NCBI GenBank assembly: GCA_038321575.1
Contig: JBBQFD010000001.1
Span: 2,982-66,981, forward strand
Length of the DNA: 64,000 nt
Origin: Bacilli bacterium
GTDB lineage: Bacteria; Bacillota_I; Bacilli_A; RF39; UBA660
Direction of reading: 5' to 3'
Shown here: in pieces, positions 18,057 to 55,730 of the stretch
Position numbering within the stretch: the stretch's first letter is position 1
Layout of the letters: the number at the start of each line of letters is the position of its first letter
Made by a program: the position numbers and the translations under genes
The notes under the pieces: generated by a model
Told to the model about the DNA's origin: nothing
The model's database searches: none
Seen by the model: only the letters and a program-made list of their open reading frames with translations

Positions 18057-19250
18057 TTATTTTTTTCTTATTAATACTTTATTATTTAAATTACTAATAA
18101 ATAATTGCTCTTCATTGTCAATATTAGTAAAAATAGTGATAACTCCTAGTTTTTGACATAAATTAATAAACTCAGTCAAAACTAATTTTATTCTTTGATC
18201 AGTCTTTGCTTTTTCCAGCATGCTTTTACTTATTTTTATATAATCTATATCTACCAAAGATAAAATGGGGATAATAAATTGTTGGCTTTCTAAGCTCATT
18301 TCGCCGATACCAACTTTTATTCCTGTTTTTTTAATATCAGAAATTATTTTTACTATTTCTCCCGTTGAACCTTGATAATATTGAGTATCTATATTAATAC
18401 ATAATTTATTAGGAACAATCATATTTTTATTTATTGCTGTTTGTAACTCTCCTACAATATCATGCTCTTTAGCAACAATTGTTTGATAACTCACATTAAC
18501 TATATATTCTTTTTCTTTATCATTAGGGATTATTTCTTCTAAGCATCTTTTTAAATTAATCATATCGATTTTTTTAAGCTTATGATTGATTCTAAGAACA
18601 TCATAATGGCCATCACTAAAAAGATTTTTTTCGTGCTCATCAACAATTGTTAAATCAATAATATTTTCATTATTACCATTTATATCATAAAGTGGTCGAT
18701 ACGCATATTTGAATTCATTTTTATCTAACATTTCATCGACTGAATGGATAAAATTTTTGGTATCAGTAAATTTTTTATATATTTGATCATTATAATATTC
18801 AATTAAATTTTCTTTTTTCTTAGCTTCATACATTGTTAAATCAGCCTTTAATAACATTTCATCCAAGTTTTCTTTAGCTAAAACAATTCCACTATTAAAA
18901 GTAAACATAACCGGAATTTGTTCTTTCTCATAATCATTTTTAATATCATTATAAACTGCAATGATTTTATCAGAAATTCCTTCTGGGTTATCATTAGTAA
19001 CAATAACAAACTCATCACCATGAAGTCTAATTAATAGCGAATCAGAGAATCTTTTAGTTACTATTTGCGAAAACAAAATTAAGCACATGTCCCCTACTTT
19101 ATGCCCAAAATTATCATTAATATATTTTAAACTGCGAAAATCAATTGCAATCAAATAGGTTGTTCCATCTTTTTTAATATATTCTTTGTATTGTTCTTTT
19201 AAATATAAAGCGTTGTTTAAACTAGTTAGTTCATCTATATATTGTGTCAT
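18057..19250 (-). CDS. GGDEF domain protein with degenerate HGDEF motif and degenerate EAL-like C-terminal domain
   Basis: The N-terminal half (DFRSLKYINDNFGHKVGD...RLHGDEFVIV) has a GGDEF fold with G-to-H at the first position. The C-terminal half has an EAL-like outline (YRPLYD..., VDYIKISKS) but lacks the EAL and DDFGTG catalytic residues. Confidence 0.65.
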   Translation of the reverse strand: MTQYIDELTSLNNALYLKEQYKEYIKKDGTTYLIAIDFRSLKYINDNFGHKVGDMCLILFSQIVTKRFSDSLLIRLHGDEFVIVTNDNPEGISDKIIAVYNDIKNDYEKEQIPVMFTFNSGIVLAKENLDEMLLKADLTMYEAKKKENLIEYYNDQIYKKFTDTKNFIHSVDEMLDKNEFKYAYRPLYDINGNNENIIDLTIVDEHEKNLFSDGHYDVLRINHKLKKIDMINLKRCLEEIIPNDKEKEYIVNVSYQTIVAKEHDIVGELQTAINKNMIVPNKLCINIDTQYYQGSTGEIVKIISDIKKTGIKVGIGEMSLESQQFIIPILSLVDIDYIKISKSMLEKAKTDQRIKLVLTEFINLCQKLGVITIFTNIDNEEQLFISNLNNKVLIRKK

Positions 19251-37332: not shown

Positions 37333-37362
37333 TAAAAAAAAGATACAATGTATCTTTTTTTA
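37333..37362. terminator. bidirectional terminator between convergent lipoprotein gene and pgi
   Basis: The hairpin aaaagataca-atg-tatctttt is flanked by A and T runs. Confidence 0.6.
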
Positions 37363-38556
37363 TTCAGCTAATATCTTCTTCATTGTTTCTTTGTATTTTT
37401 CGACTCCTTCTTGATTGAAGGCATCAACATCACTAAGATGACCATTAACCGCACAAGAAATCATAAAGAATTGAAGTATATATCCTAAATTAAAAGTTGT
37501 TAGTTTATCAACATTAATAATATTATTAATAACACCATCTTTAAAGTGGGCAATCGAGGTTGCTTTAGATGCAATATTATTTATTTCATTTAGACTCTTC
37601 TTATATTCATCAACTTCAATATCTTTTTCAACTTCTAAAATATTTATAACGGTTTCAAATAAAATATGACTACCGTCTTGAATAAATTGTCCCATCGAAT
37701 GAAGATCTCTCGTATTTATAATCCCAATTGGTAAAGTACCTTTACCATCTTTACCTAATGATTCTGAATATAATTGTTTTAACCATTCAGTAAGTGCATC
37801 TAATTTTGGTTCATAAGCAACAAAAGCTTCAACCATCGTTCCCTTTTTATAAAGAATATCTCTAATAATAGCATATTTAATTTGATTATTAACAGTCTTT
37901 TGTGATTCGATGGCACCATCTAATAACTCTTCAATATTGATACCAGCTACTGCGATTGGTAATAAACCAACCGGTGTAAAGACTGAATATCTACCACCAA
38001 TATCATTAGGAATATCAAATGTCTTATAACCTTCAGCATTTGCTTTTCCATTACCACCCGTTAAAATAATACGTTCTTTTAACTCTTCACTTGAATATTT
38101 TTCTTTCATAATATCTAAAATAAGGTCAAATACAACTCTAGTTTCAAAAGTTGTTCCTGATTTAGATATGTAATTAACAATAATGTCTTTGTTTTTAATC
38201 AATTCTTTTAATTCAATCAAATATTCACTTGATAGAGAAGTCCCCAGAAAATATATTTCTGGTTTTTTTTGTTCGTTATAGAAATATGGACTCAATGATT
38301 CAATTACTGCTAATGAACCTAAGTAAGAACCGCCAATTCCTACTACTAAAAATGCATCACAGTTGTTTTTAATCTGTAAACTAGTCTTTTTAATCTCATC
38401 AATCAGTTCTTGCTTTTTTAGATTTTTAGGATAAGCCCAACCCATCATATTTTGATGAGTTTTAAAATAATTACTTAATTCTTTGATTTTTGGATCATAG
38501 GTCGCAATCTCTTCATCAGTAATATCACTATAGGTTTTAAAATCAAAACTTATCAT
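37360..38556 (-). CDS. pgi: glucose-6-phosphate isomerase (Bacillus-type Pgi)
   Basis: VVGIGGSYLGSLA, SKSGTTFET, GGRYSVFTPVGLLPIAVAG and EWLKQLYSESLGKDGKG are present. It overlaps the giant upstream gene by 4 nt. Confidence 0.85.
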   Translation of the reverse strand: MISFDFKTYSDITDEEIATYDPKIKELSNYFKTHQNMMGWAYPKNLKKQELIDEIKKTSLQIKNNCDAFLVVGIGGSYLGSLAVIESLSPYFYNEQKKPEIYFLGTSLSSEYLIELKELIKNKDIIVNYISKSGTTFETRVVFDLILDIMKEKYSSEELKERIILTGGNGKANAEGYKTFDIPNDIGGRYSVFTPVGLLPIAVAGINIEELLDGAIESQKTVNNQIKYAIIRDILYKKGTMVEAFVAYEPKLDALTEWLKQLYSESLGKDGKGTLPIGIINTRDLHSMGQFIQDGSHILFETVINILEVEKDIEVDEYKKSLNEINNIASKATSIAHFKDGVINNIINVDKLTTFNLGYILQFFMISCAVNGHLSDVDAFNQEGVEKYKETMKKILAE

Positions 38557-41500
38557 TCTTTACCTCCCATATTTACTATTATTATATGTTTTTTCTTATC
38601 ATCAATCAAGTTTATAAGATTATCTTTAACTTTTTTTTCATCAATCATTATACTACTTACACCTTCAGATACATGGTCTTTATTATTTACTTTAATATCA
38701 TAAATAGTATTAAGATACTTATAAGTAAACTCAAAATTTAACCATGTTGAATCAATATGAGGATTGATTGTTAAAGTATTACCTGTTTTTTCTAAACCAA
38801 TAATTTTTTCGATACCTATTTTATAAGCCCAACTAGCCGAACCGGTATACCAAGTCCAACCACCGCGACCAGCGTAATTATTTTTTGAATAAATATCGGC
38901 TGCAATAACATACGGTTCAGTTTTATATTTTAAAACATCTATTGCATTAGTAGTACGATTAATTGGATTAATCATTTTTAAATAGCCGTATGCTTTATTT
39001 ATTTCACCAATCTTAATTAATGACATAATATACCATAAGGTTGCATGGGTATATTGAGCTCCATTTTCTCTAACTCCCGGTAGGTAATCACTTATATAAC
39101 CAGGGTCATTTTTTTCTTCAAAGAAAGCGGGGCTTAATAATTTAATTAAATGATTATCGTTGTCAACTAATCTATTGTCGATTTCTTTAATTAATGGTTT
39201 TATATTACGTGGATCAATAACATTGCTTAAAATACTCCATGATTGTGATAATAAATCTATTTGGCATGAAGCATTATTCTTAGAACCAAGGGTGTCACCA
39301 TTATCAAAGAAAGCTCTTAGATACCAACTACCATCCCAAGCATTAGCATTAATTGATTTTTTTAATTCAATAGCTGATTCATGACACGTTTTAATAAAAT
39401 CAACATCTTCTTTAGGGGCAATTTCTTCTATCTTATTTAAAAGATCATATAAGAAAAATCCTACCCAAACACTCTCTCCGATACCTTTATTACCAACTTT
39501 ATTCATACCATCATTCCAGTCACCACTACCCATCAAAGGTAGGCCGTTGGTCCCTAGTTGATTTAACGCTTTAGTAATTGATAATTTTAAATGATAGTAA
39601 AGTGTTTCTTGAGTTGCACTATATGAATAATTAATGCCTTTTTCGTCTTGTTGTTCACCTAAGTGTTCACCTTCAACAAAAACTACTTTTTCATCTAAAA
39701 TGGTGTAATTATTAGTTACTTTTAAATATTCATATGTTACATATAATAGCCATAAATAATCATCAGAGAACTTAGTGCGTGCCCCTAACGATAATTCTTC
39801 ATGCCACCAATGTAGAACATCTCCTTCAATGAATTGGTGTTTGGCATGTTTTAAGATTTGATCTCTGGTAAAAGTTGGATTACTATATATTAAACTCATT
39901 GAGTCTTGTAATTGATCTCTAAAACCAATTGCGCCACCAACTTGATAGAAAGCTGATTTAGCATATAATCTTGATGCATAAACTTGATATAAATACCAAC
40001 CGTTCATCATATAATCAAATGATTTATCAGGTGTCTTTATAACAATGTTTGATAGTTTTTCTTTCCAGTATTCAACTACTTCAATAAATTCATTAGCGAT
40101 AAACTCTTTAGTTTGATACTTGTTAATAATATCTTCGGTGTTATTAGCACAACCAAGCATAAATGATAATTCTTTACTTTCATCTTTAAATAGATCAATA
40201 CTAATCGAGATTGTTTTTGTTGAGACATCATTTAAATCATATTTTACAATCTTTTCGCTTGATGACATAAATACTTTTTCATTTCTAAAGACTTTATTAT
40301 AAACATTTTGCATAATCAAACTATTTTGTGTAACATCAAAATCAACTAAAATATGAGAGTTAGTTTGTTCTTCCGTTTCACCTAAAACCGGTTTAATAAC
40401 AAAGTCGATATCTAATTTAATTTTAGTACTCTTCTTATTGTTAATTTTTATGTCATAAAGTTTTAGATTATCACTTCTGGGGACAAATACTTTTATTTCC
40501 ATATCATAATCTTCAGTATTAGCAATAAAAATCGAATACCCAAATCCGTGTTTTACTAGACTTGGAATAAACTTTTGTTTATTAATATAAATAGCTTCAC
40601 TAGCAGGATCACCTACTGCATCATTGCTCCATGATGTTAATTTAAACTGACGACTATTGTATGCATAAGTAAATCCACCTAGATTGTTAGTTATAACGGT
40701 TCCGAAAGTCTCATTAGCAATTATATTTGACCATGGCGCTGGTGTATCATTATTAAAAACGTGATACTCACTACCATTTTTACTAAACCCACCATATTGA
40801 TTGTCAAAATCAATCTTTGGAGATTTAGTTTCTAACAACGTTATTAAATTAGAAGTTTTGCTTACTTCTAATTTAATTGGTTCTAAAAGATCTAAATCAA
40901 ATATTTGTTGATTTAATGACTTATGAATTGAAGCATCAAAATATATTTTAGTAATTGTTTTAAACAACACTAATTCTTCATTACTCAATTCTGATATTGT
41001 ATATACATTCCCTGGTGAGTTTTCAAAATAATTTAAATTATTAATACGATACATCAAATTATTAATGTATTTAGCAACTAATTCTTTTTTACCATCAACT
41101 TCATTATTTATAATAACCACATCTAAATAAATAGCGCGGCTCTTATAAAACTCATAAGCTTGTAAGATTTCTTTTATAAAACCTGAATCCTCAGCATTAT
41201 CAATATTAACTAAGATTAATGGTAAATCACCAGATACTCCAAACTTCCATAAATTATCTTGCGATAAATTATTAATATGTAAGATTTCATGACGTTTTAT
41301 GCTAATTGGTAGTGTTTGATAAATGTACTTAAGCATAGTGTTATATGACATTAACTCACGACCATTTAAACCAGCATAGTGATTGCGCATATTATTTAAT
41401 ATAGTTGCCATTTCAAACGCAACATCAACTATTTTCTTATTATTATAAGTGTTAACTATTTCATCAATTTGTTCTCTTGACTTGCCGAAACCAACTAATA

Positions 41501-44500
41501 AGTAAATTATCTTTTTACTATTAGCTTTAATTTTAATATTCTTACGAATACTCATGATCGGATCAATCAAGTCATCAATATCACATGACAAACGTTCACT
41601 ATTACATATTTTAAAAGGATTCGCCGTAGTATTGTTACGACCAATGAAATTAGCGCGTGATGTTTCAAATTCAAAATTGATACTATCTTCACCATCAATA
41701 AACATACGATTAACCACAAAATACTTAGTATTTTCTTTAGTGCGTGAACTTCTCTTAAAGATTAATGATGATGTTTTCTCATCTATTTCACTAGCAATTG
41801 TTAAACTGTTAAAAGCACGATGTGCAATATCTTCTTCATTACGAGCCATAATAATTTCAGAATAAGACGTTACTTCTAAATTAATATCATCATTACTAGT
41901 ATTTTCAAAAGTAATTTTACGTATTTCCGCATTATGTTCCTTGGTAACCATGATTTCCGTATTAGTAATTATATCTTCATCTTCTCTTGTATACTTGATT
42001 CGATCACTAGCAAAAACCACACGATATTTATCAGGTGCTTTCTTTGCTGGTAAATACGTATTGGTCCAAAAATTATTAGTTTTAAGATTTTTAATATATA
42101 TAAACACTCCGTAATTCTCATCCGTTACATTGCGGTAACGATTAATAAATAAATTTTTATATTTACTAAAACCTATACCGCGATCATTGATGAAAGTAGA
42201 GTAAAAACCATTAGATAAAACTCCCACACTAGGCATTGGCATAATACCAGTTTGTTCTCTAACGTCAGTATCTTGAATATCTCGTTTATAAGAATATTTC
42301 TTATAACGTTCTATTTTTAGATCAATATATGGTCTAATTTGAACTTTTTCTTTTAATAATAATTCAATTGCTTTAATGTTTTTATCAGCATGAAAATATT
42401 CTTGAATAATATTTTCGTGAAAATAATTAGCGATACTAGATAGTATCATCCCTTGATGATGTGAATAATAAGCTTTAACAACAACTTTATCTTCATTGTC
42501 ATAAGCTTCATATAAACCATATTTACCATACATATCTAATTTTTTAAGTTTCTTAATATTTTCATATACACCATTTGGATATCTACCCAAAGCCATTAAT
42601 GATCCATATGGAGCAATAACAATTAACGGGGTTTCACTATCTTGGAACTTTAAATGTGGGACCCCAAAAGCTTTATATTTATAATTTTGTGAGTCATCTA
42701 ATTCATTATAAGCTGATTCAGTTATACCCCATGGTAATTTGGGATCAGCTTCACGCATAAATTCTTTTTGAGCATAATACGCAAATAAATAAGTTTCATC
42801 TAATAAAGTGTGCTTATATGTTTTCATAAATATTAATGGCATATAATATTCAAACATTGTTCCAGTCCATGAAACAACACCTTTATATAGTTTATATTTA
42901 GTTAACGTCTTATCTAAGCAAAACCAATGTTTAAAAGGTACATCCCCTTTAGCAATAGCAATAAAACTAGAAAGGCGTGACTCTGATAAGAAATTATTAT
43001 AATGATATGGAACTAATTTACCTTCATTAATCGTATAACCAACACTAAAGACATCAAGATCATGATTATATAACTTAGAGAAATCAGTAGCAGCAATTAA
43101 TTTATTAACACGATATTCTAAAACTTTATAATGAGTTAAGTGTTCTAAGAATCCTTTTAAGACATATAACGATGAAACAAAATTACCACTATCAGCAGTT
43201 GATATAAAGAATGGTGGTATTGCTTTCATTTCATAAATATTATACCAATTATATAAATGACCATTCCATTTAGCTAAACCCTCAACACTCTTTAAAATAT
43301 TAGCTAATAAATCGATTGCGACAGTTTCGTTAATAATTTTTAATTCATAAGCTGAAATAACACTGGTTATCGATAAACCAACATTAGTTGGCGAAGTACG
43401 ATAATCTATCTTTTCTTCACGATTTGATTGAAAATTATCTGGCATCAAATAATTAAATTCTCTTGTTAAATAGTCCTCAAAGAAACTCCAAGTTCTGATA
43501 GCAATATCTCTAATTTCACCTTTAGCTTTGCCACTCAACGGTTGTGATTCATACTTAATATCAAGACTTATAAAGAACATTAAGAATGGCGCAAATATCC
43601 ATATCGAAGCCAAGAAGTATGCTACATAAATATAATCTTGTTTAAAATAGTATGCAAGCCATATTATTAATAATGTAAATAAATAATTAGCTTTAAAATT
43701 ATTAATATAAGTTAACAGATTATTTTTAGAACGCTTTTCCACTTCTTCCGAAGTAATCCAATTTAGTAAATTCTTTTTACTTATTAGCATGCGATAAACT
43801 GATTTAATAATCGCATCTAAATATAAACAAGTTTCATATGGCAATAGAGCTAAAATAATAAATGATTTTATAACTACTGCAAATATACCAGTAATTAAAT
43901 TCAAATAATACTTTAAAAATATATCATATTTTTGTTTTGAAAATATCTTAGCAAATAAATAAAAGAAGATTGGGGTCGCTATTATAATCATAACTATAAC
44001 CAAAGATATTGTTGGATTAAGTTTACTAATAGTAAATCCATATATGATTAATAACAGCAATGCTAAACTCTTTAAACTTCTAACTAAATTATCAAATATT
44101 TTCCACTTTTCAATTAAATTGATCGGATTTTTAACAACTTCGTTCTTTTTATTTCTTACTTTGTTTTTAAGCCAACTAATAATTTGCCAGTCACCTCTGG
44201 TCCAACGATGATGTCGACCAGCATCATTTAAGTATTTAGATGGGAATCCATCAAAGAATTCAACATCACTAACAAATCCACAACGTAAGTAATTTCCCTC
44301 TAACAAATCGTGGCTTAAAATAAGATTATCAGGGAAGTTATTATTGATTATTTCATCAAAAATCTCTAAATCATATATTCCTTTGCCAACAAAACTACCT
44401 TCATTAAAAACATCTTGATATAAATCAAAACTCTTGGTCGTATATATATCTAAACCTCCAAGACCTGCGAATAACTGTGTATATTGTGACTTATCAGTCG

Positions 44501-46259
44501 CTTCTAATTCAATACTAATTCGTGGTTGCATAATTGCATAACCAGCAATAACCTTCTTGCGGTCTTTTGATAAAACTGGTTTGTTCATTGGGTGAATCAT
44601 TGCCCCAATTAATTTTAAAGCAGTATTCAAAAGCAGTTTAGTATCTGCATCTAAAGTTATAACATATTTTATTTTAGTTTTAAAATCTTTAAAAGTATGA
44701 TAATTAAAATATAAATCTTGATCTTCTTTATTTAATTTGTGTAATAATAATTGATTAAAATGTAATAAAGCTCCTCTTTTTCTTTCATAACCTAAATAAG
44801 AAGCCTCACTTTCATTATAAAAGCGATTACGATACGCAAAATTAAATACCTTACTACCATATTTTTCGTTAAGTTGATTAACTTTCTTAATGCCAGCATC
44901 GATAACTATTTGATCCATAGCAACATTTTCTGTTGTCTCGCTAGTTACATCACCAAGCAAAGTAAAGTATAAATTAGTTGTACGGTTTGATAAATAATAT
45001 AACTCTAAATTATCAAACATTTGGTTAACTTTGTTAGCGCTATTTAAAATAGTTGGAATAACTACCATCGTACTATATTCAGCCGGAAAACTTTCTTCAA
45101 CTTTGATTTTAAATAGACTTTTCGTATTTACTGTTTTTAATAGTATTTGGTTTACTATATCAATAACATATCCTAATGACGGAATAAGTAAAAGCAGGAA
45201 CCCCGTTATTCCAAAAAAGTATGAACCTATAAACGACAAAATCAATGTTAATGCAAACACGGTTGTAATATACACAACAGTTCTTGTTTTATAATCTTTT
45301 TCTTCAAATAAATAAAATCCGATATGTTTTTCGTTATTGTCAGCAACTTTTACTAAGTTCTTAATGTATTGATACTCATTAATTTTATTATTTTTAACTG
45401 TTTTCTTAATTTGATTACGATATTCTGCTTTCGAACTTTCATACATCGAATCATATATATTAACTTTCTCATTAATTAATGCTTTTTCTGTATAACTAAC
45501 ACTAGAATATAGTAATTCCATCTTAACTTTAATCATTTTTTTAAGTGATTCAAACAAATTAACCATTAATAAATTCTCGTTTAATTTTTCTTCGTGTTGT
45601 TCTTTAATAATATCCTTTAATGACATACTATTTTTAATTAATAATTCATTTAATTTTTTAAAGACTGATTCTGAAATAGAATCAAGTTCACTTAATTTAT
45701 AGTTTAATTCTTCAATATAATAATGATTATCTAAAATCGAATTATTGATTTTTATATAATCATATATATTACGATTTTTCTTTTGATATTGATTTTTTTC
45801 GATTATTTTAAAAGCACGATCAATACTATGTGTTTCATCAAGTTTGTTGTTTAATTTCATTGCTAGTTTCTTAAGCTCATTAATTATGATAATTCTGAGA
45901 ACAATATTTATATAATCAAATTCATCATAAGAAAAATAATCTTTATTTGCCTCTTGGTAATTATTAATTTGTTCAAATACTATCGCCAAACTAAATTTGA
46001 AATTTTGTTGCACTAAAAAACTATAGAGTAATTCCCTTATTTGTTTCTTTCGACTATTTTTAATTTTTAAGATACTTTTCTTTTTTAAACTACCTTCAAT
46101 TTGAATTTGTTGTTCACTTATTAAATAGTAGTTATCAATAATCCATTCATTAATACTACCAACGCTTTGGTTTTGCTTTGTATATGAGACTAATTTTTTA
46201 TAATACACCGTTATATAATGAATATCCAAATTTAATTTTTTTAATACGATATTATTCAT
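38553..46259 (-). CDS. giant membrane glycosyltransferase-GH94 glycoside phosphorylase fusion, cyclic beta-1,2-glucan synthase (Cgs/NdvB/ChvB)-like, 2568 aa
   Basis: The N-terminal third has TM clusters flanking a GT-A-type region (LDADT DxD motif, HRWTRGDWQ). The C-terminal ~1000 aa has GH94 hallmarks (MGSGDWNDGMN, GGWTWYTGSASWAY). A middle alpha-helical region links them. Confidence 0.75.
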   Translation of the reverse strand: MNNIVLKKLNLDIHYITVYYKKLVSYTKQNQSVGSINEWIIDNYYLISEQQIQIEGSLKKKSILKIKNSRKKQIRELLYSFLVQQNFKFSLAIVFEQINNYQEANKDYFSYDEFDYINIVLRIIIINELKKLAMKLNNKLDETHSIDRAFKIIEKNQYQKKNRNIYDYIKINNSILDNHYYIEELNYKLSELDSISESVFKKLNELLIKNSMSLKDIIKEQHEEKLNENLLMVNLFESLKKMIKVKMELLYSSVSYTEKALINEKVNIYDSMYESSKAEYRNQIKKTVKNNKINEYQYIKNLVKVADNNEKHIGFYLFEEKDYKTRTVVYITTVFALTLILSFIGSYFFGITGFLLLLIPSLGYVIDIVNQILLKTVNTKSLFKIKVEESFPAEYSTMVVIPTILNSANKVNQMFDNLELYYLSNRTTNLYFTLLGDVTSETTENVAMDQIVIDAGIKKVNQLNEKYGSKVFNFAYRNRFYNESEASYLGYERKRGALLHFNQLLLHKLNKEDQDLYFNYHTFKDFKTKIKYVITLDADTKLLLNTALKLIGAMIHPMNKPVLSKDRKKVIAGYAIMQPRISIELEATDKSQYTQLFAGLGGLDIYTTKSFDLYQDVFNEGSFVGKGIYDLEIFDEIINNNFPDNLILSHDLLEGNYLRCGFVSDVEFFDGFPSKYLNDAGRHHRWTRGDWQIISWLKNKVRNKKNEVVKNPINLIEKWKIFDNLVRSLKSLALLLLIIYGFTISKLNPTISLVIVMIIIATPIFFYLFAKIFSKQKYDIFLKYYLNLITGIFAVVIKSFIILALLPYETCLYLDAIIKSVYRMLISKKNLLNWITSEEVEKRSKNNLLTYINNFKANYLFTLLIIWLAYYFKQDYIYVAYFLASIWIFAPFLMFFISLDIKYESQPLSGKAKGEIRDIAIRTWSFFEDYLTREFNYLMPDNFQSNREEKIDYRTSPTNVGLSITSVISAYELKIINETVAIDLLANILKSVEGLAKWNGHLYNWYNIYEMKAIPPFFISTADSGNFVSSLYVLKGFLEHLTHYKVLEYRVNKLIAATDFSKLYNHDLDVFSVGYTINEGKLVPYHYNNFLSESRLSSFIAIAKGDVPFKHWFCLDKTLTKYKLYKGVVSWTGTMFEYYMPLIFMKTYKHTLLDETYLFAYYAQKEFMREADPKLPWGITESAYNELDDSQNYKYKAFGVPHLKFQDSETPLIVIAPYGSLMALGRYPNGVYENIKKLKKLDMYGKYGLYEAYDNEDKVVVKAYYSHHQGMILSSIANYFHENIIQEYFHADKNIKAIELLLKEKVQIRPYIDLKIERYKKYSYKRDIQDTDVREQTGIMPMPSVGVLSNGFYSTFINDRGIGFSKYKNLFINRYRNVTDENYGVFIYIKNLKTNNFWTNTYLPAKKAPDKYRVVFASDRIKYTREDEDIITNTEIMVTKEHNAEIRKITFENTSNDDINLEVTSYSEIIMARNEEDIAHRAFNSLTIASEIDEKTSSLIFKRSSRTKENTKYFVVNRMFIDGEDSINFEFETSRANFIGRNNTTANPFKICNSERLSCDIDDLIDPIMSIRKNIKIKANSKKIIYLLVGFGKSREQIDEIVNTYNNKKIVDVAFEMATILNNMRNHYAGLNGRELMSYNTMLKYIYQTLPISIKRHEILHINNLSQDNLWKFGVSGDLPLILVNIDNAEDSGFIKEILQAYEFYKSRAIYLDVVIINNEVDGKKELVAKYINNLMYRINNLNYFENSPGNVYTISELSNEELVLFKTITKIYFDASIHKSLNQQIFDLDLLEPIKLEVSKTSNLITLLETKSPKIDFDNQYGGFSKNGSEYHVFNNDTPAPWSNIIANETFGTVITNNLGGFTYAYNSRQFKLTSWSNDAVGDPASEAIYINKQKFIPSLVKHGFGYSIFIANTEDYDMEIKVFVPRSDNLKLYDIKINNKKSTKIKLDIDFVIKPVLGETEEQTNSHILVDFDVTQNSLIMQNVYNKVFRNEKVFMSSSEKIVKYDLNDVSTKTISISIDLFKDESKELSFMLGCANNTEDIINKYQTKEFIANEFIEVVEYWKEKLSNIVIKTPDKSFDYMMNGWYLYQVYASRLYAKSAFYQVGGAIGFRDQLQDSMSLIYSNPTFTRDQILKHAKHQFIEGDVLHWWHEELSLGARTKFSDDYLWLLYVTYEYLKVTNNYTILDEKVVFVEGEHLGEQQDEKGINYSYSATQETLYYHLKLSITKALNQLGTNGLPLMGSGDWNDGMNKVGNKGIGESVWVGFFLYDLLNKIEEIAPKEDVDFIKTCHESAIELKKSINANAWDGSWYLRAFFDNGDTLGSKNNASCQIDLLSQSWSILSNVIDPRNIKPLIKEIDNRLVDNDNHLIKLLSPAFFEEKNDPGYISDYLPGVRENGAQYTHATLWYIMSLIKIGEINKAYGYLKMINPINRTTNAIDVLKYKTEPYVIAADIYSKNNYAGRGGWTWYTGSASWAYKIGIEKIIGLEKTGNTLTINPHIDSTWLNFEFTYKYLNTIYDIKVNNKDHVSEGVSSIMIDEKKVKDNLINLIDDKKKHIIIVNMGGKE

Positions 46260-46360: not shown

Positions 46361-47722
46361 ATGAAAGAATTTAATGAGAATATTTTTAGAGCTTATGATA
46401 TAAGGGGTATTTACGGAAGTGAACTTACGGATGATTTGGCCTACAACCTTGGATTAGCATTTGGTACCAAATTAAAATTAGAGCACAAGACAAGAACTGT
46501 TGTTGGGTATGATAACCGCACTTCTTCAGTGTCGCTTTTTAATGCCCTCACTAAAGGTATTAAAGAAACAGGCATTGATGTTATTAATATTGGATTAGTC
46601 ACTACTCCGATGTATTATTTTGCTTGGCAACTATTTCAAGTTGATTCTGGCATTATGATTACGGCTTCACACAATCCTAAAGAACACAATGGTTTTAAAA
46701 TATCATTTAATGGCACCTTTAATGCCTATGGTGAGATGATTCAAGAATTCAAGGAATTCATCAAAAAAGGAAAATTTATAAGCGGTCAAGGACTTACTAT
46801 TAATGAAGATATAAAAGACCGTTATATTGACTTTGTTTTAAAATCAATTAAATTAGGTGAAAGACGACTAAAAATTGTAGTTGATTCAGGTAATGGTACT
46901 TCAGCCATTATTATAAAAGATGTTTTAAATAAATTAAATATTGATTATATCCCTCTTTATACAGAATCAGATCCTAATTTTCCTAATCATCATCCTGATC
47001 CTAGTGTTCCAAAAAACATGGAAATGCTTAGTGAAGTTGTTAGAAGTAAACAAGCTGATGTTGGATTTGCATATGATGGTGATGCTGATCGTATGGGTTT
47101 AGTTGATGAATCCGGCAACATGATTAGTAATGATCACTTTATGATTATGATTGTGAGAGATATTATTAATAACTTAAGCGATAAACGTATTTTGTTTGAT
47201 GTTAAATGTTCAAAGAGTTTAGAAGATGAAATTATTAAATTAGGTGGAACCCCAGTTATTTCAAGGACTGGTAATTCATATCTTAGAGCAAGAATCGTTG
47301 ATGATAATATCCCTTTTGGCGGTGAGTTATCAGGACATATTTTCTTTAATGATAAATTCCCTGGTTATGATGATGGTATTTATGCATCACTTAGAATGAT
47401 GGAAATATTAAGCAATACTAATAAAAAGGTTAGTGAATTATTAAGTGGTATCACTAAATATTACTCAACACCTGAATTAAAGATGAATGTTAGCGATGAT
47501 AAAAAATTCGCTTTAATTGAACAAGTAAAAACTTACTGCCAATCTAAAAATTATAAATTTTTAGATATTGATGGTTGTAAAGTCATATTCGATGATGGCT
47601 TTGTTCTTGTTAGAGCATCAAATACCGGTCCTCAAATAACCTTAAGGTTTGAAGCGACAACTGAATTAAGACTTAATGAAATGAAAACTGAATTTGAAAA
47701 TGTTATTAATAAAATGCAATAA
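46361..47722 (+). CDS. phosphoglucomutase/phosphomannomutase family protein
   Basis: The active-site serine loop (TASHNPKEHNGFK), the metal loop (DGDADR) and GELSGH are present. It is divergent from the giant synthase gene. Confidence 0.88.
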   Translation: MKEFNENIFRAYDIRGIYGSELTDDLAYNLGLAFGTKLKLEHKTRTVVGYDNRTSSVSLFNALTKGIKETGIDVINIGLVTTPMYYFAWQLFQVDSGIMITASHNPKEHNGFKISFNGTFNAYGEMIQEFKEFIKKGKFISGQGLTINEDIKDRYIDFVLKSIKLGERRLKIVVDSGNGTSAIIIKDVLNKLNIDYIPLYTESDPNFPNHHPDPSVPKNMEMLSEVVRSKQADVGFAYDGDADRMGLVDESGNMISNDHFMIMIVRDIINNLSDKRILFDVKCSKSLEDEIIKLGGTPVISRTGNSYLRARIVDDNIPFGGELSGHIFFNDKFPGYDDGIYASLRMMEILSNTNKKVSELLSGITKYYSTPELKMNVSDDKKFALIEQVKTYCQSKNYKFLDIDGCKVIFDDGFVLVRASNTGPQITLRFEATTELRLNEMKTEFENVINKMQ

Positions 47723-47723
47723 A

Positions 47724-47754
47724 AGAAAAATCTAGGTTATCCTAGATTTTTTTA
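47724..47754. terminator. bidirectional terminator between convergent PGM and GLUG-pilin genes
   Basis: The hairpin aaaatctagg-ttat-cctagatttt is followed by T-rich sequence. Confidence 0.6.
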
Positions 47755-50700
47755 ATTTGCTTCAACTGAAATACTTGTACCACTCAGTTTCCAAATAAAC
47801 TCTAAAGTAGTTGTATCTGTAAAATTAAATGAAGCATAATTCGTATAAATAGTTGTTTCTAATAACGCTTCTGCTGTAGAATTAATTCCATTTGGATCAT
47901 ACGTGTTAGCACTAATTACTGTACTACCGTTAATTGTTGATGTGGCTAAAGCAACCCCTTCTGATAACGGATTGTTGTCCTTAGCACTAATACGGTAAAC
48001 ATTTGCAGTTCCTACTATTGCACCACCGCGATATAATGATCCGCGTATTGACCCATTTGTATATCCCCAGCTGCTTGGCCAGCCACTATCGTAGGTATAT
48101 CCAGCAATTCCACCAACATAATTTGTTCCTGTTACATTTCCTTCTGACATAACATCAGAAGCATTACCATAATTATAACCAATTACTAATCCTGTATATG
48201 TAGTTCCCACTATGTTTCCAGATACATATATATCAGAAACATTGGTGCTACTTCCTTGATTATATCCAACTACTCCTCCAGTATGTGTCCCTGTTGCTGT
48301 TACAGCCAAGGTTTTTATATTCATTCCTTTTACTGAACCAGATCCGGTATTATTTCCGACTATTCCTCCGGTATAGTTACTACCATTTACAACAGTATTT
48401 GTAACATTGATTTTACTTATTATTCCTATATTTACACCGGCAATAGCACCAGTATAATTATCACCATTAATATTTAATCCTGTTAAATTAAAATTAGTAA
48501 CAGTCCCACTATTATATCCGAATATTCCGGTATTATAGGCACCGCTCAAGACAATATTATTTAAAGTCTTCCCATTACCATTAAAATTACCAGTAAATCT
48601 ATTGTTATCGCTTGATAATGTATAAAAGTATTTATCACTAAAATTGATATTATTCATTAATTTATAATAAGATCCTGGTGATAAACTAATTTGATTAAAT
48701 TCTTCGTAATTAGTTATCAAATACGGATCATCACTAGCGCCAGTACCGCTCATCGTAATAGCGGTATTGGCTATTTTAGGAATTATAACACCGCTGCTAT
48801 TGTAATCAAAATAATAACCATCAGCATCATTATCACCACCAATTATAGTATCTAGAGTTATTTCGTAAGTATTAATACTTGATATTCTAGAAGGACTAAT
48901 ATCAGAACCGTCAACTCCATAAAAACTAGTACCATTGATAGCTACACCATTAACTAAAATATCACTAGCCGACATAGCTTTATTAATTGTTCCGGCATTA
49001 CCAGTTGGTGATATTTTATTATAATTTGACGTCGCTGTAATATTGCCTTTTTTATAAATAACACCATTTATATAGCCATTTATATAACCATATGATTCTG
49101 GCCAACCACTATTATGATTATATCCAGCAATTCCTCCAACATAATTTATGCCAGTTACATTACCTTCAGTTGTAACACTCTTAATATTTCCTTTGTTATA
49201 ACCGGTAACTAATCCAACAAAATTAACCCCTGTTACGTTTCCTTTGTAAGAAACTGTTGATACATATGCATTGAGACCTCCGTCTAATAATCCAGCAATT
49301 CCACCAGTATTATCTCCAGTTCCCGTAATAGTTGCGTCAATTACATATGCACCGATAATTTTACCGCCACTGTTGCATCCTACTATTCCGCCGGTATTAG
49401 AAACGCCATTTACATTAAGATTTGTAACATTAATTTTACTAATTGTTCCTGCATTTAAGCCTGCCATTGCACCAGTACAATTTCCTCCACTAATGGTTAA
49501 TCCTGTTAAATTAACACTGGTAATAGTTCCACCATTGTATCCAAATATTCCAGTATTATAAGCACCATTTAAAACAATATTACTTAATGTCTTTCCGTTG
49601 CCATTAAAATTACCAGTGAATCTGTTATTATCACTAGATAATGTATAGAAATACTTGTTACTGAAACTAATGCTATTCATTAATTTATAATAAGACCCTA
49701 GCGAGAAACTAATTTGATTAAGTTCTTCATAATTAGTTATCAAATATGGATCATCACTAGCACCAGTACCGCTCATCGTAATAGCGGTATTAGCTATTTT
49801 AGGGATTATAACACCGCTGCTATTGTAATCAAAATAATAGCCATCAGCGTCATTGTCACCACCAATTATGGTATCTAGAGTTATTTCATAAGTATTAATA
49901 TCTGTTATTTTAGAAGAACTAATATCAGAGCCATCAGCTCCATAAAAACTAGTACCATTGATAGCTACACCATTAACTAAAATATCACTAGCCGACATAG
50001 CTTTACTAATTGTTCCGGCATTATCAGTTGGTGTTATTTTGTTATAAGTTGATTCGGCTGTAATATTTCCTTTTTTATAAAAAACACCAGCTATATAACC
50101 ATTCATATAACCATATGATTCTGGCCAACCACTATTATAAGTGTATCCAGCAATTCCTCCAATATGATTTTGACCACTTATGTTGCCTTCAGTGGTAACA
50201 TTTTTGATACTACCTCTATTATAACCAGTAACTAATCCAAGATAACACCATCCTGTTACATCACCTTTATAAGAAGTATTTGAAATATAAGCGTTAGAAC
50301 CTCCTATAAGAAATCCAACAAGTCCGCCAACATAGTTGGTACCGATAACATTTGTATCAATTACATATGCACCGATAATTTTACCACCTTCATTATATCC
50401 GGCAATTGACCCAGTATAAGTATTACCAGTAATTAACGAATTACTTAAACTCAAATCTTTAATCGTTCCGCTGTTGTATGCGAATAAACCCACATAATTT
50501 TGCGTTGGTCTATTAATGTAAAGATTATTAATAAATTTATTGTTGCCATTAAAAGTTCCAGAAAAAATGTAAGTATTATTATTTATCGGCAAGAACCCTA
50601 GGCCCGTTGTAAGTTCGGTTTTCAATGATTCAATGATAGTGTTACCATTTATATCACCAAAAGCAATTGTTGAACTATTAATATACGATTTATCATCTTG

Positions 50701-51339
50701 ATAATTTAAATTATAATTTAAATAAATTGTTTTGCCATTAAAATTTTCAGTCTTAGCGAGATTCGAAAAAGCCACTAAATCTTCAATGCTGTTTATATTA
50801 CATGTTGTATTTCCAGCATAGTTTTCAGTTGCTCCTGATCCGCATATAACTCCAGGATTAGAATCAACTACTTGTGAATATATAACGGTATCGCTATGAA
50901 TACCCATAATATCTGCTAAAAAGGTTGTCTCATCAAGAATTGATTCAACAATAGTTGGTTCTACATCAGTGTAATCTTTTACAACAGCAATTTGTAGGTC
51001 ATTGTTCCAAATACCCAAATAAACAACTCCTTCGTTATTTACTTCAACTTTACCACTATCAGGGAGTTTACCTTTAATATTTAATTTAATTTCACTTGTT
51101 TGAACACCATCTTCAAAAGTTACAACAAAACTAGAAACTGTCGTTTCTGTACTATTTAATTCGGCATACTTCATTTCAGCAGCTGAAACAATATTATCAG
51201 CACTTCTTAAAAAAACATCTGCTCTTGCTTTTTGAATGACACCAAAGATGGTTGGTGTTGCTATTAATGCAATAACCGACAAAATCACAATTACTGCTAA
51301 TAACTCGATTAAAGTAAATCCTCTTTTAATATTTTTCAA
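47752..51339 (-). CDS. giant class-III-signal-peptide (type IV pilin/ComGC-like N-terminus) protein with GLUG-motif repeats, 1195 aa, TTG start
   Basis: The N-terminus MKNIKRGFTLIELLAVIVILSVIALIATP is a prepilin peptidase site (G|FTLIE). The body has more than 20 GLUG motifs (NYVGGLVGF, NHIGGIAGY, NTGGIVGCN, NFVGLVTGYN) and an internal ~340-aa duplication. The start codon is TTG, preceded by AAGGGGG. Confidence 0.8.
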   Translation of the reverse strand: MKNIKRGFTLIELLAVIVILSVIALIATPTIFGVIQKARADVFLRSADNIVSAAEMKYAELNSTETTVSSFVVTFEDGVQTSEIKLNIKGKLPDSGKVEVNNEGVVYLGIWNNDLQIAVVKDYTDVEPTIVESILDETTFLADIMGIHSDTVIYSQVVDSNPGVICGSGATENYAGNTTCNINSIEDLVAFSNLAKTENFNGKTIYLNYNLNYQDDKSYINSSTIAFGDINGNTIIESLKTELTTGLGFLPINNNTYIFSGTFNGNNKFINNLYINRPTQNYVGLFAYNSGTIKDLSLSNSLITGNTYTGSIAGYNEGGKIIGAYVIDTNVIGTNYVGGLVGFLIGGSNAYISNTSYKGDVTGWCYLGLVTGYNRGSIKNVTTEGNISGQNHIGGIAGYTYNSGWPESYGYMNGYIAGVFYKKGNITAESTYNKITPTDNAGTISKAMSASDILVNGVAINGTSFYGADGSDISSSKITDINTYEITLDTIIGGDNDADGYYFDYNSSGVIIPKIANTAITMSGTGASDDPYLITNYEELNQISFSLGSYYKLMNSISFSNKYFYTLSSDNNRFTGNFNGNGKTLSNIVLNGAYNTGIFGYNGGTITSVNLTGLTISGGNCTGAMAGLNAGTISKINVTNLNVNGVSNTGGIVGCNSGGKIIGAYVIDATITGTGDNTGGIAGLLDGGLNAYVSTVSYKGNVTGVNFVGLVTGYNKGNIKSVTTEGNVTGINYVGGIAGYNHNSGWPESYGYINGYINGVIYKKGNITATSNYNKISPTGNAGTINKAMSASDILVNGVAINGTSFYGVDGSDISPSRISSINTYEITLDTIIGGDNDADGYYFDYNSSGVIIPKIANTAITMSGTGASDDPYLITNYEEFNQISLSPGSYYKLMNNINFSDKYFYTLSSDNNRFTGNFNGNGKTLNNIVLSGAYNTGIFGYNSGTVTNFNLTGLNINGDNYTGAIAGVNIGIISKINVTNTVVNGSNYTGGIVGNNTGSGSVKGMNIKTLAVTATGTHTGGVVGYNQGSSTNVSDIYVSGNIVGTTYTGLVIGYNYGNASDVMSEGNVTGTNYVGGIAGYTYDSGWPSSWGYTNGSIRGSLYRGGAIVGTANVYRISAKDNNPLSEGVALATSTINGSTVISANTYDPNGINSTAEALLETTIYTNYASFNFTDTTTLEFIWKLSGTSISVEAN
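48355..50394. repeat. ~1.02 kb near-identical tandem duplication (2 copies) inside the GLUG-pilin gene
   Basis: Long DNA stretches in 48550..48960 and 49570..49980 are near-identical at a 1020-nt offset. Protein residues about 316-655 and 656-995 are collinear with few substitutions. Confidence 0.8.
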
Positions 51340-51452
51340 AATATGCCCCCTTATTGTTATTAATAAAATTATAACATTATTTTCTGTTTTTGAAAAGAAA
51401 AAGACTAATTATTAGTCCTTTTATGATACATATAAATATAAATTTATAAAAA

Positions 51453-52278: not shown

Positions 52279-53058
52279 TTATGGTTGCATTACTCCGAAG
52301 AATACTAACCATGCCAATACTGATTTAGCAACTAAGCTAAGAATAATATAAGCACGTTCGCCATATAGATAATCTGCCCATTTGCCTTTTTCTTTATATT
52401 GTAAGATCATATTAATTGGGAATAGATTAAAGAATACTAAATATGATCCAAATACCGCATAAACAAACCATGGTATTTGAGTAGGATCAGAATTACCAAA
52501 GGCATACATAATAACTACTATCCAAGGAATTAAGCCGGCGATTGATCCAAATATAAATGGTAACCAATCAATTTTCTTGTGATTTTGATTCATTTTTTCC
52601 ATTAATAAACCAAATAGATTCATGGTTGCATTTAAACCAAAGATCAACATTAATGACCCAATGTCTTTAACGCCGAATAATACAGCAATTAAGACAATCA
52701 TTAGTGATGAGCTAAGAGCATATTCATACCATCTAAACATATTCATATTATTACTTATTTGTTTAATGTATCCCTTATTAAATCTAGGTGATGCTACTAT
52801 AAAGTGAAACATCGCTGATAAGAATAGAAATACTGATACTAATATCCCAAATGGTAAAGTAAACAATACCTTTTGAACATTTACTAAATGCATTGTTGCT
52901 TTATCAAAAGTTAAAAAGTTTGAATATATATCTGGTCTAAAATTAGCCACCTTTGCCACATTTAACGCTACATATAGCATAAATGCTCCTTGAATAAAGT
53001 GGAAAAATCCCATAAATAAATTAAATCTTGTTAGGGCCTTAAATTTGTTTTCTAACAT
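52279..53058 (-). CDS. heliorhodopsin
   Basis: Seven TM helices are present. The 259-aa protein has FRWYEYALSSSLMIVLIA (TM3, Glu counterion) and GERAYIILSLVAKSVLAW (TM7, Schiff-base Lys), the hallmark blocks of heliorhodopsins. Confidence 0.85.
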   Translation of the reverse strand: MLENKFKALTRFNLFMGFFHFIQGAFMLYVALNVAKVANFRPDIYSNFLTFDKATMHLVNVQKVLFTLPFGILVSVFLFLSAMFHFIVASPRFNKGYIKQISNNMNMFRWYEYALSSSLMIVLIAVLFGVKDIGSLMLIFGLNATMNLFGLLMEKMNQNHKKIDWLPFIFGSIAGLIPWIVVIMYAFGNSDPTQIPWFVYAVFGSYLVFFNLFPINMILQYKEKGKWADYLYGERAYIILSLVAKSVLAWLVFFGVMQP

Positions 53059-55238: not shown

Positions 55239-55730
55239 TTATTTATAAATTTTTCTTATTTTAATTGTGCTTGCACTTGTCTTAAGATTATTTAAATGCT
55301 CTATTTGCCAATTTCTTTCAGCTTCCAATATATCATCCACATTAGCGTTATCTTTATTTAAATAATATAATGCTGAAATAACATACATTGCTGATCCTTC
55401 TGAATGAGTTTTAACGTGACAAGTAGCAAGGGCATGACTACACGCTCTAGCGATTTGACATGCAACTTTATCGGTTGCCTCAAGTTCTCTAGCAACTGCA
55501 AGCGTGGGATATGTAAATTTTCTTGCATCCCACATTTTAACTTCATCACTTAGCCATTTATTTAACATATTAAGCGCATCACGAGGTCTTGTTTCATTAG
55601 GATATTTATCTTCAATTAAATATAAATACTTTGTCACACAATCAAATGCCCATCTTGCCAATAATTTTTGATCGGTATCTTTTATTAATTCAACTAATCG
55701 CGGATCATGTCGTAATTTTTTTAAATCCAT
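55239..55730 (-). CDS. hypothetical alpha-helical protein (163 aa)
   Basis: It is an intact ORF upstream of the FAD oxidoreductase. I recognise no catalytic motif. Confidence 0.5.
   Translation of the reverse strand: MDLKKLRHDPRLVELIKDTDQKLLARWAFDCVTKYLYLIEDKYPNETRPRDALNMLNKWLSDEVKMWDARKFTYPTLAVARELEATDKVACQIARACSHALATCHVKTHSEGSAMYVISALYYLNKDNANVDDILEAERNWQIEHLNNLKTSASTIKIRKIYK

Follow-up and report, generated by a model that had tools for sequence, protein, structure and literature searches.

A solitary gene of a Bacilli bacterium joins a type IV pilin module to a rod of three GLUG-type beta-solenoids

Introduction

How a Gram-positive cell might present a body of more than a thousand residues behind the head of a type IV pilin is the question raised by a solitary gene of a Bacilli bacterium (assembly GCA_038321575.1, contig JBBQFD010000001.1). 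The gene lies on the minus strand of a stretch of 64,000 nucleotides, hereafter called the window, and encodes a protein of 1195 amino acids (aa). Its head is a genuine type IV pilin module, and its body folds into three tandem beta-solenoids of the GLUG type. With moderate confidence, the whole is read as a modular type IV pilin, in which a small pilin carrier displays a rod of ~1050 residues on a filament. The window has a GC content of 29%, and its genes for MraY, Mur ligases and an LtaS-like sulfatase mark the host as walled.

Both the modular-pilin concept and the N_methyl-GLUG architecture are already known. Raynaud et al. (2021, PMC8179133) defined modular pilins on the basis of PilB of Streptococcus sanguinis and assigned over 1200 proteins, with 264 architectures, to them. 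A von Willebrand factor A (vWA) module is grafted onto the pilin in PilB, which is polymerised into pili and acts as an adhesin (PMC8179133). The combination IPR012902-IPR011493 (GLUG) was listed among the modular architectures with 6 proteins and was taken as a predicted M26 peptidase (PMC8179133). A full-text literature search found no dedicated study of GLUG together with pilin. What is new here is an unusually large member, a family much bigger than the databases of 2021 showed, and a functional reading corrected to that of a binding scaffold. For the 1195-aa gene itself, the outcome is for the most part a well-supported annotation and not a surprise.

The pilin module

The gene and the parts that encode its head are as follows (positions are those of the window).

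47752 to 51339, minus strand: whole modular type IV pilin gene, 1195 aa, with its stop codon at 47752-47754 (listing of open reading frames, ORFs)
51319 to 51339, minus strand: leader peptide MKNIKRG, residues 1-7, with predicted prepilin-peptidase cleavage after Gly7 (N_methyl and TIGR02532 matches)
50902 to 51339, minus strand: pilin module, residues 1-146, with alpha1 helix 10-63, a 4-5-stranded sheet 71-131 and a short helix 137-146
50833 to 50901, minus strand: linker, residues 147-169, of which residues 147-151 have a predicted local distance difference test (pLDDT) value below 50 in the model

The N-terminus consists of the leader MKNIKRG followed by FTLIELLAVIVILSVIALIATP, with F1, E5 and P22 in the mature protein. 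It is recognised by both Pfam N_methyl (E 1.8e-7, 30.9 bits against a cutoff of 21.2) and TIGR02532 (E 5e-8, 32.4 bits against 16.3), which bears out the class III signal peptide with Gly-1 and Glu+5 that the original prediction, made from the sequence, had proposed. No other prepilin motif occurs in any of the six frames of the window. The only hydrophobic segment of the protein is N-terminal, and a motif scan of the protein found no LPXTG; the earlier statement that it has neither this nor any other anchor stands.

The assignment of the leader to the ComGC type did not hold. With a cutoff of 75 bits, the NCBIfam model for ComGC (NF040999) scores only 22.2 and matches nothing beyond the generic N-terminal motif, and the models for GspG and PpdD score similarly. 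ComGC, the major competence pilin of Bacillota, shares the leader and the alpha1N motif (KGFTLIE...) with the protein described here, but it is ~100 aa long and encoded in the comG operon, whereas the present protein has 1195 aa and a solitary gene.

The key positions of the signal are strongly conserved. In an alignment of 42 homologues, whose overall identity is no more than 29-46%, F1 and E5 occur in every sequence (42/42 each), G-1 in 41/42 and P22 in 30/42. In type IV pilins, E5 and P22 play a part in building the filament rather than in simple anchoring.

The pilin character is not confined to the signal. In the AlphaFold model, an alpha1 helix of 54 residues is followed by a beta-sheet, and this corresponds to the pilin fold, an extended helix of ~50 residues packed on an antiparallel sheet. 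The best match of the family profile among PDB sequences is PilE1 of S. sanguinis (8pfb, E 3.3e-12), followed by geopilin, MshA, PilA and GspG. The match to PilE1 spans profile positions 12-113; pilin homology therefore extends well beyond the leader. A separate model of residues 1-160 reached a pLDDT of 89.8, and Foldseek returned no match for it. Raynaud et al. characterised modular pilins by an N-terminal IPR012902, a short linker and a module that is not specific to pili. The same arrangement is found here, with the pilin module (1-146), a linker (147-151) and the beta-solenoids.

The repeat body

Three modules follow the linker.

49783 to 50832, minus strand: beta-solenoid module 1, residues ~170-519, capped at its N-terminus (SIEDLV...), with the loop GGDNDADGYYFDY at 495-500 (self-comparison, model, Foldseek)
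48760 to 49782, minus strand: beta-solenoid module 2, residues ~520-860 (61.5% identity with module 1), containing a DxDxDG loop at 836-841
47755 to 48759, minus strand: beta-solenoid module 3, residues ~861-1195 (59.7% identity with module 2); it diverges at its C-terminal end and lacks the DxDxDG loop

Self-comparison divides the body into these tandem modules of ~341 aa, which begin at about residues 170, 520 and 861 and are 60-62% identical. The period in the DNA is 1023 nt, and the DNA copies are only 66-79% identical. They are therefore too divergent for an artefact of repeat misassembly or collapse, which was rejected.

Prediction of the structure of the body had been suggested as a check. 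With the 42 homologues as input, the full-length AlphaFold model has a pLDDT of 87.1 and a predicted template modelling score (pTM) of 0.74, and it contains three beta-solenoids at a pLDDT of ~90. The best Foldseek match of the full model is BACOVA_03286 (3n6z; E 1.4e-6, TM 0.56 on the target). It is joined by the N-terminal beta-helix of IgA1 proteases from S. pneumoniae and G. haemolysans (6xja, 6xjb and 7uvk; E 3e-3 to 7e-3, probability 1.0), and the confident fold matches are limited to these two groups. The body thus has a right-handed beta-solenoid fold like that of solved GLUG-containing domains.

At the level of the motif, the Pfam Glug score over 7 stretches is 8.3 bits (E 4.5), below the cutoff of 20.5, so that the call on this protein is sub-threshold. 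Homologues carry Pfam PF07581 (Glug) and PF05342 (Peptidase_M26_N), and one of them, encoded at a locus of an Erysipelotrichia metagenome-assembled genome (MAG; locus L011), reaches 84.6 bits with Glug. The body of ~1150 aa of GLUG repeats that had first been described thus keeps its GLUG-type beta-helix fold, but not its uniform array, which gives way to three modules of ~341 aa with a sub-threshold motif.

A DxDxDG-type loop (GGDNDADGYYFDY) closes module 1 (49840-49857) and module 2 (48817-48834) and is missing in module 3. The ...DTIIGGDNDADGYYFDY... loop that ends two modules is invariant across the closest homologues. To judge from its residues, the loop resembles a calcium site and possibly stiffens the module junctions.

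The body shares its fold class with BACOVA_03286 and the beta-helix of the IgA1 metalloproteases, but it differs from both in having three tandem copies and an N-terminal pilin instead of a Sec signal, at an identity of only 13-17%. Unlike the IgA1 metalloproteases, it also lacks the M26 middle and C-terminal domains, HExxH, a G5 domain and LPXTG.

The NxS/T sites, earlier described as many, are not enriched (32 observed against 28.1 +/- 4.5 in shuffles, p 0.23). A glycosylation-rich reading of the body was rejected, the sequons being at chance level.

Gene start and transcription unit

The following signals border the coding region.

51346 to 51352, minus strand: strong Shine-Dalgarno sequence AAGGGGG, read in the sequence, 6 nt before the TTG at 51339-51337
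51368 to 51396, minus strand: promoter-like site, TTTTCA, 17 nt and a TG-extended TATAAT (consensus scan only, 10/12 matches)
51398 to 51422, minus strand: hairpin with U-run, terminating the upstream gene of a short-chain dehydrogenase/reductase (RNA fold -8.4 kcal/mol, z -2.6)
47724 to 47753, both strands: bidirectional intrinsic terminator common to the convergent phosphoglucomutase gene (two-strand terminator scan; fold -14.9 kcal/mol, z -5.6)

The ORF listing agrees with the TTG start codon (51339-51337, minus strand) given originally. An in-frame stop precedes it, so that no upstream in-frame start is possible and the hydrophobic segment cannot be internal, the circumstance that had been named as speaking against the pilin reading. 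Promoter-like sites are no more numerous in this region than expected from shuffled sequence. The two hairpins between which the gene was said to stand alone are both present, and the weak one at 51398-51422 isolates it transcriptionally. The ORF is a real, monocistronic gene, and its protein is identical to a gene product in a public collection (P0001).

Display on a filament

The steps that we infer for the favoured reading, a modular pilin displayed on a filament, would run as follows. The gene would be transcribed on its own, and the N-terminal hydrophobic helix of its product would insert into the membrane and leave the body outside the cell. A prepilin peptidase would remove MKNIKRG and methylate Phe1. 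The pilin module could then be incorporated by a type IV filament machine as a subunit of low abundance that probably sits at the tip. This would hold the beta-helix rod at a distance from the cell, where it may bind a ligand such as a protein or a glycan and act as a non-catalytic adhesin.

The nearest known counterparts are PilB (vWA) and PilC (lectin) of S. sanguinis (PMC8179133; PMC9934059). These likewise come from a monoderm host of the Bacillota, carry a class III signal and a small pilin module, which a short linker joins to a bulky module that is not pilus-specific, and have a predicted role as adhesins. In contrast to them, the cargo here consists of three beta-solenoids of ~341 aa (~1050 aa), several times larger than the vWA or lectin module, and the gene lies outside a pil locus. 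Large minor pilins at filament tips, such as CofB and TcpB of type IVb pili, GspK of the type II secretion system and the Thermus ComZ with its beta-solenoid, are discussed in the same work (PMC8179133). They too combine a pilin module with extra domains, and they are thought to cap the filament and bind ligands. They differ in being diderm proteins with genes in pilus or secretion operons, and the extra domain of ComZ and GspK is inserted within the pilin fold, whereas here a long tandem rod is appended.

Several points weigh against filament display. No prepilin peptidase (A24), T2SSE ATPase or T2SSF platform protein is encoded among the ~50 ORFs of the window, nor are comG or Tad genes found there. 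The A24, T2SSE and T2SSF genes are equally absent within 10 kb of the family members at seven loci of relatives (L001, L002, L086, L085, L087, L088 and L003). The cargo of ~125 kDa exceeds that of any modular pilin which, to our knowledge, has been shown experimentally to be polymerised, and it would also have to cross the Gram-positive wall. The adhesive role, finally, is suggested only by analogy of fold.

Filament machines do exist in the wider group, as two kinds of loci indicate. In the Erysipelotrichia MAG (L011), a truncated GLUG protein adjoins a PilB-like ATPase (T2SSE 2e-129) and six small pilin-like ORFs, of which four have a canonical GFTL[IV]E leader, one matches N_methyl less strongly and one begins with a divergent N-terminus of the GY type and has no Pfam hit. 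Gut Bacilli MAGs contain operons of the Tad type at the following positions.

L017, 9992 to 16075: Tad-type operon
L074, 4977 to 12798: Tad-type operon
L090 to L092, 6862 to 13536: Tad-type operon

The genes of these operons follow the order N_methyl protein, TadE, TadE-like, ParA/CpaE, CpaF, T2SSF and T2SSF, and further N_methyl proteins are encoded nearby. In L017 and L090/L091, the first gene encodes a large (337-519 aa) N_methyl protein with GFTLIELLA, not a small Flp pilin; for the 490-aa ORF that takes this place in L092, no Pfam hit is recorded. Within 10 kb of the operons, no A24 peptidase was seen. The best 120 matches of a search with CpaF as the query were all gut relatives at least 83% identical to it.

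Surface anchor, general carrier or Tad substrate

The main alternative, possible though rather doubtful, dispenses with the filament. The prepilin signal and alpha1 would serve as export signal and membrane anchor of a surface fibril, whose rod spans the wall and whose tip is the adhesin; the pilin module would be a general display anchor of the lineage that replaces sortase-type anchoring. This would suit a solitary gene with no pilus genes nearby, here or in most relatives, and a protein with one hydrophobic segment, no other anchor and a rod-like architecture of three modules. Paralogues in tandem arrays of two to five, and the presence of the same leader on many unrelated large proteins (300-2670 aa) in MAGs of uncultured Bacilli and 'Tenericutes', point the same way. 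In other phyla, the same body follows ordinary signal peptides and therefore does not need a pilus. However, an anchor would have no need of an invariant E5, a frequent P22 and a complete, conserved globular pilin domain, all of which suggest packing between subunits, and type IV filament machines adjoin such proteins in some relatives.

A broader proposal concerns the lineage as a whole. In uncultured, often genome-reduced Bacilli, including human and animal gut MAGs of the 'Tenericutes' or RF39-like type, the pilin module might be a general carrier of varied giant surface proteins, with GLUG rods the most prominent, handled by a Tad-type machine switched to N_methyl subunits or by no filament at all. 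We consider this unlikely and put it forward tentatively. If true, it would amount to a distinct strategy of surface display, different from both sortase anchoring and classical pilus tip adhesins and analogous to the archaeal use of class III signals. In archaea, a pilin-type signal is found on many diverse extracellular proteins, such as the sugar-binding proteins of the Sulfolobus 'bindosome', much as the GFTLIELLA leader is widespread on MAG proteins of 100-2670 aa. The archaeal proteins differ in belonging to another domain of life, in being processed by the peptidase PibD and in lacking the full globular domain of bacterial-type pilins.

It seems improbable that a Tad-type (type IVc-like) system, and not a Com or type IVa pilus system, handles the protein as substrate or subunit, with a CpaF/TadB/TadC machine recognising its N_methyl module. 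This dependence is a sub-question of filament display, and the degrees of confidence given to the different readings are not meant to add up to a whole. The operons in L017, L074 and L090-L092, in which N_methyl, TadE, CpaF and T2SSF genes stand together, favour it, as do the N_methyl proteins flanking those of L017 and L074, whose pilin modules are 33-39% identical to residues 1-116/124 of the protein in the window. The operon-linked N_methyl proteins, however, lack GLUG bodies, the window has no Tad genes, and the sole GLUG protein found beside a machine (L011) adjoins a PilB-like and not a CpaF-like ATPase. Moreover, the pilins of canonical Tad systems are of the Flp type, which has another motif, and their peptidase is TadV.

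If the favoured display on type IV filaments is correct, proteins of this kind would be the largest modular pilins known and a main class of adhesins in abundant uncultured Bacilli, including gut lineages, and would bear on how these attach to a host, to particles or to partner cells. The family also lends itself to a clean test of the cargo size that such a filament can bring across a Gram-positive wall.

Binding scaffold or enzyme

A last alternative sees the protein as a pilus- or surface-tethered enzyme, its beta-helix being a glycan lyase or hydrolase, or a peptidase according to the InterPro label 'M26'. Polysaccharide lyases and hydrolases are commonly built on a right-handed beta-helix, and Foldseek gave weak matches to GH55, PL6, AlgG and tailspikes (E 0.02-0.5, probability at most 0.28). 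The peptidase version has a precedent in the treatment of IPR012902-IPR011493 by Raynaud et al., and Pfam Peptidase_M26_N is found on some homologues.

The catalytic signature is missing. The protein contains only 4 His residues and no HExxH, a motif that is also absent from all 112 pilin-led homologues (112/112), and the M26 catalytic Pfam domain gives no match to it even at E 10. In the solved IgA1 protease complex, the N-terminal beta-helix binds the IgA1 Fab and gates the active site, and the residues for catalysis belong to the middle and C-terminal domains (PMC7695701). Peptidase_M26_N corresponds to this non-catalytic N-terminal region, and the catalytic domains have no counterpart here. 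The positions of the body that are invariant in the alignment are mostly Gly, together with the DxDxDG-type loop, a pattern of a scaffold rather than of an active site, and the confident fold matches are to non-catalytic GLUG helices only.

Given the absence of the catalytic domains and HExxH and the conserved Gly/DxDxDG pattern, the body is best read as a non-catalytic binding scaffold and not as a peptidase; an enzyme is very unlikely. The M26 peptidase reading of the GLUG architecture in PMC8179133 is therefore not borne out for this protein, and the family would correct this database-driven view of N_methyl-GLUG proteins. The original comparison with proteins of the IgA1-protease type remains valid for the non-catalytic beta-helix and fails for the catalytic part.

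Size and spread of the family

A word-indexed search found 420 homologues of the protein. Nearly all of the best 120 of them carry N_methyl and are 700-1900 aa long; the only name given to any homologue is 'prepilin-type N-terminal cleavage/methylation domain-containing protein [Bacilli bacterium]'. The same leader starts 112 of 121 homologues among the matches listed. An exhaustive search, which covered 1.84 billion representatives at 50% identity, returned 32,454 beta-helix relatives at E <= 1e-3 and 974 at E <= 1e-30. Among the best 150 of these representatives, 71 are pilin-led, and the remainder are mostly giant proteins (2-7 kaa) of other phyla with ordinary signal peptides. The view that such fusions are rare and largely undescribed in Bacillota is thus not supported: modular pilins were defined in S. 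sanguinis, and the pilin-GLUG fusion is abundant in metagenomes (112/121 and 71/150).

The GTDB genomes with relatives are titled uncultured Bacilli, 'Tenericutes' (e.g., UMGS872), Erysipelotrichia, Mollicutes and Bacillota. The scan of GTDB contigs was keyed on the generic peptide GFTL[IV]ELLA and mostly returned assorted pilin-led proteins. In these loci, the same leader heads proteins of ~100 to 2670 aa, often in tandem arrays. Arrays of giant pilin-led paralogues occur in L075 (3409-14200, five copies of ~675 aa) and L086 (3699-12209), and L087 (1-25607) contains at least five genes for proteins of 1247-1904 aa together with an rve integrase fragment. Such arrays suggest rapid duplication and turnover of the surface repertoire.

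In a human-gut 'Tenericutes' lineage, the proteins fall into size classes of ~710, ~890, ~1187 and ~1488 aa (P0031-P0037, P0054-P0071, P0080-P0099, P0116 and P0120; L003 9983-13309 of UMGS872). Their first ~45 residues are near-identical (MNRKGFTLVELLAVIVILAIIALITTVVVINIIETVKIRKYKVEE), so that one carrier module would bear differing numbers of body modules. The beta-helix body of P0012, P0100 and P0276 follows a different N-terminus (...LSIAFAAMSGALNIKGTG... / ...AVVGITLNINGTGSF...). This is not a prepilin leader, nor is it obviously a standard signal peptide, and it may act as another kind of signal for export or anchoring.

Directly after many large pilin-led genes lies a gene for a lipoprotein of 135-157 aa, with a signal peptide and a lipobox such as ITGCG and without a Pfam match.

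L001, 14679 to 15098 and 18821 to 19240: lipoprotein genes
L085, 13574 to 14047: lipoprotein gene
L087, 8469 to 8891 and 15621 to 16046: lipoprotein genes
L088, 5209 to 5616: lipoprotein gene

The copies in L001 and L087 are clearly homologous, and a hidden-Markov search found no counterpart in the window.

Neighbouring genes in the window

Beyond the terminator of the pilin gene lies a gene for a 2568-aa GH94 protein (38553-46259, minus strand), which resembles cyclic beta-1,2-glucan synthase in its Glycoamylase, GH94 supersandwich and GH94 catalytic domains. It is flanked by the genes for phosphoglucose isomerase (37360-38556, minus strand) and phosphoglucomutase (46361-47722, plus strand). 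The position beside this locus had been taken as a sign of a surface-structure module. In relatives from JGI 3300076802 (L002, L086), the block of GH94 and phosphoglucose isomerase genes is kept nearby, but one or two pilin-GLUG paralogues stand there between metK and a patatin gene, an insertion point different from that in the window. Other family members sit among unrelated housekeeping genes and are often tandem-duplicated. A functional link to the glucan synthase was rejected as unsupported, since the loci of relatives differ.

Two genes upstream of the pilin gene, a heliorhodopsin is encoded (52279-53058, minus strand; Pfam PF18761, E 1e-98), which suggests a light-exposed habitat. The window also encodes an Imm5-like immunity protein without an obvious adjoining toxin partner (55239-55730, minus strand) and a GGDEF-EAL protein of cyclic di-GMP metabolism (18057-19250, minus strand).

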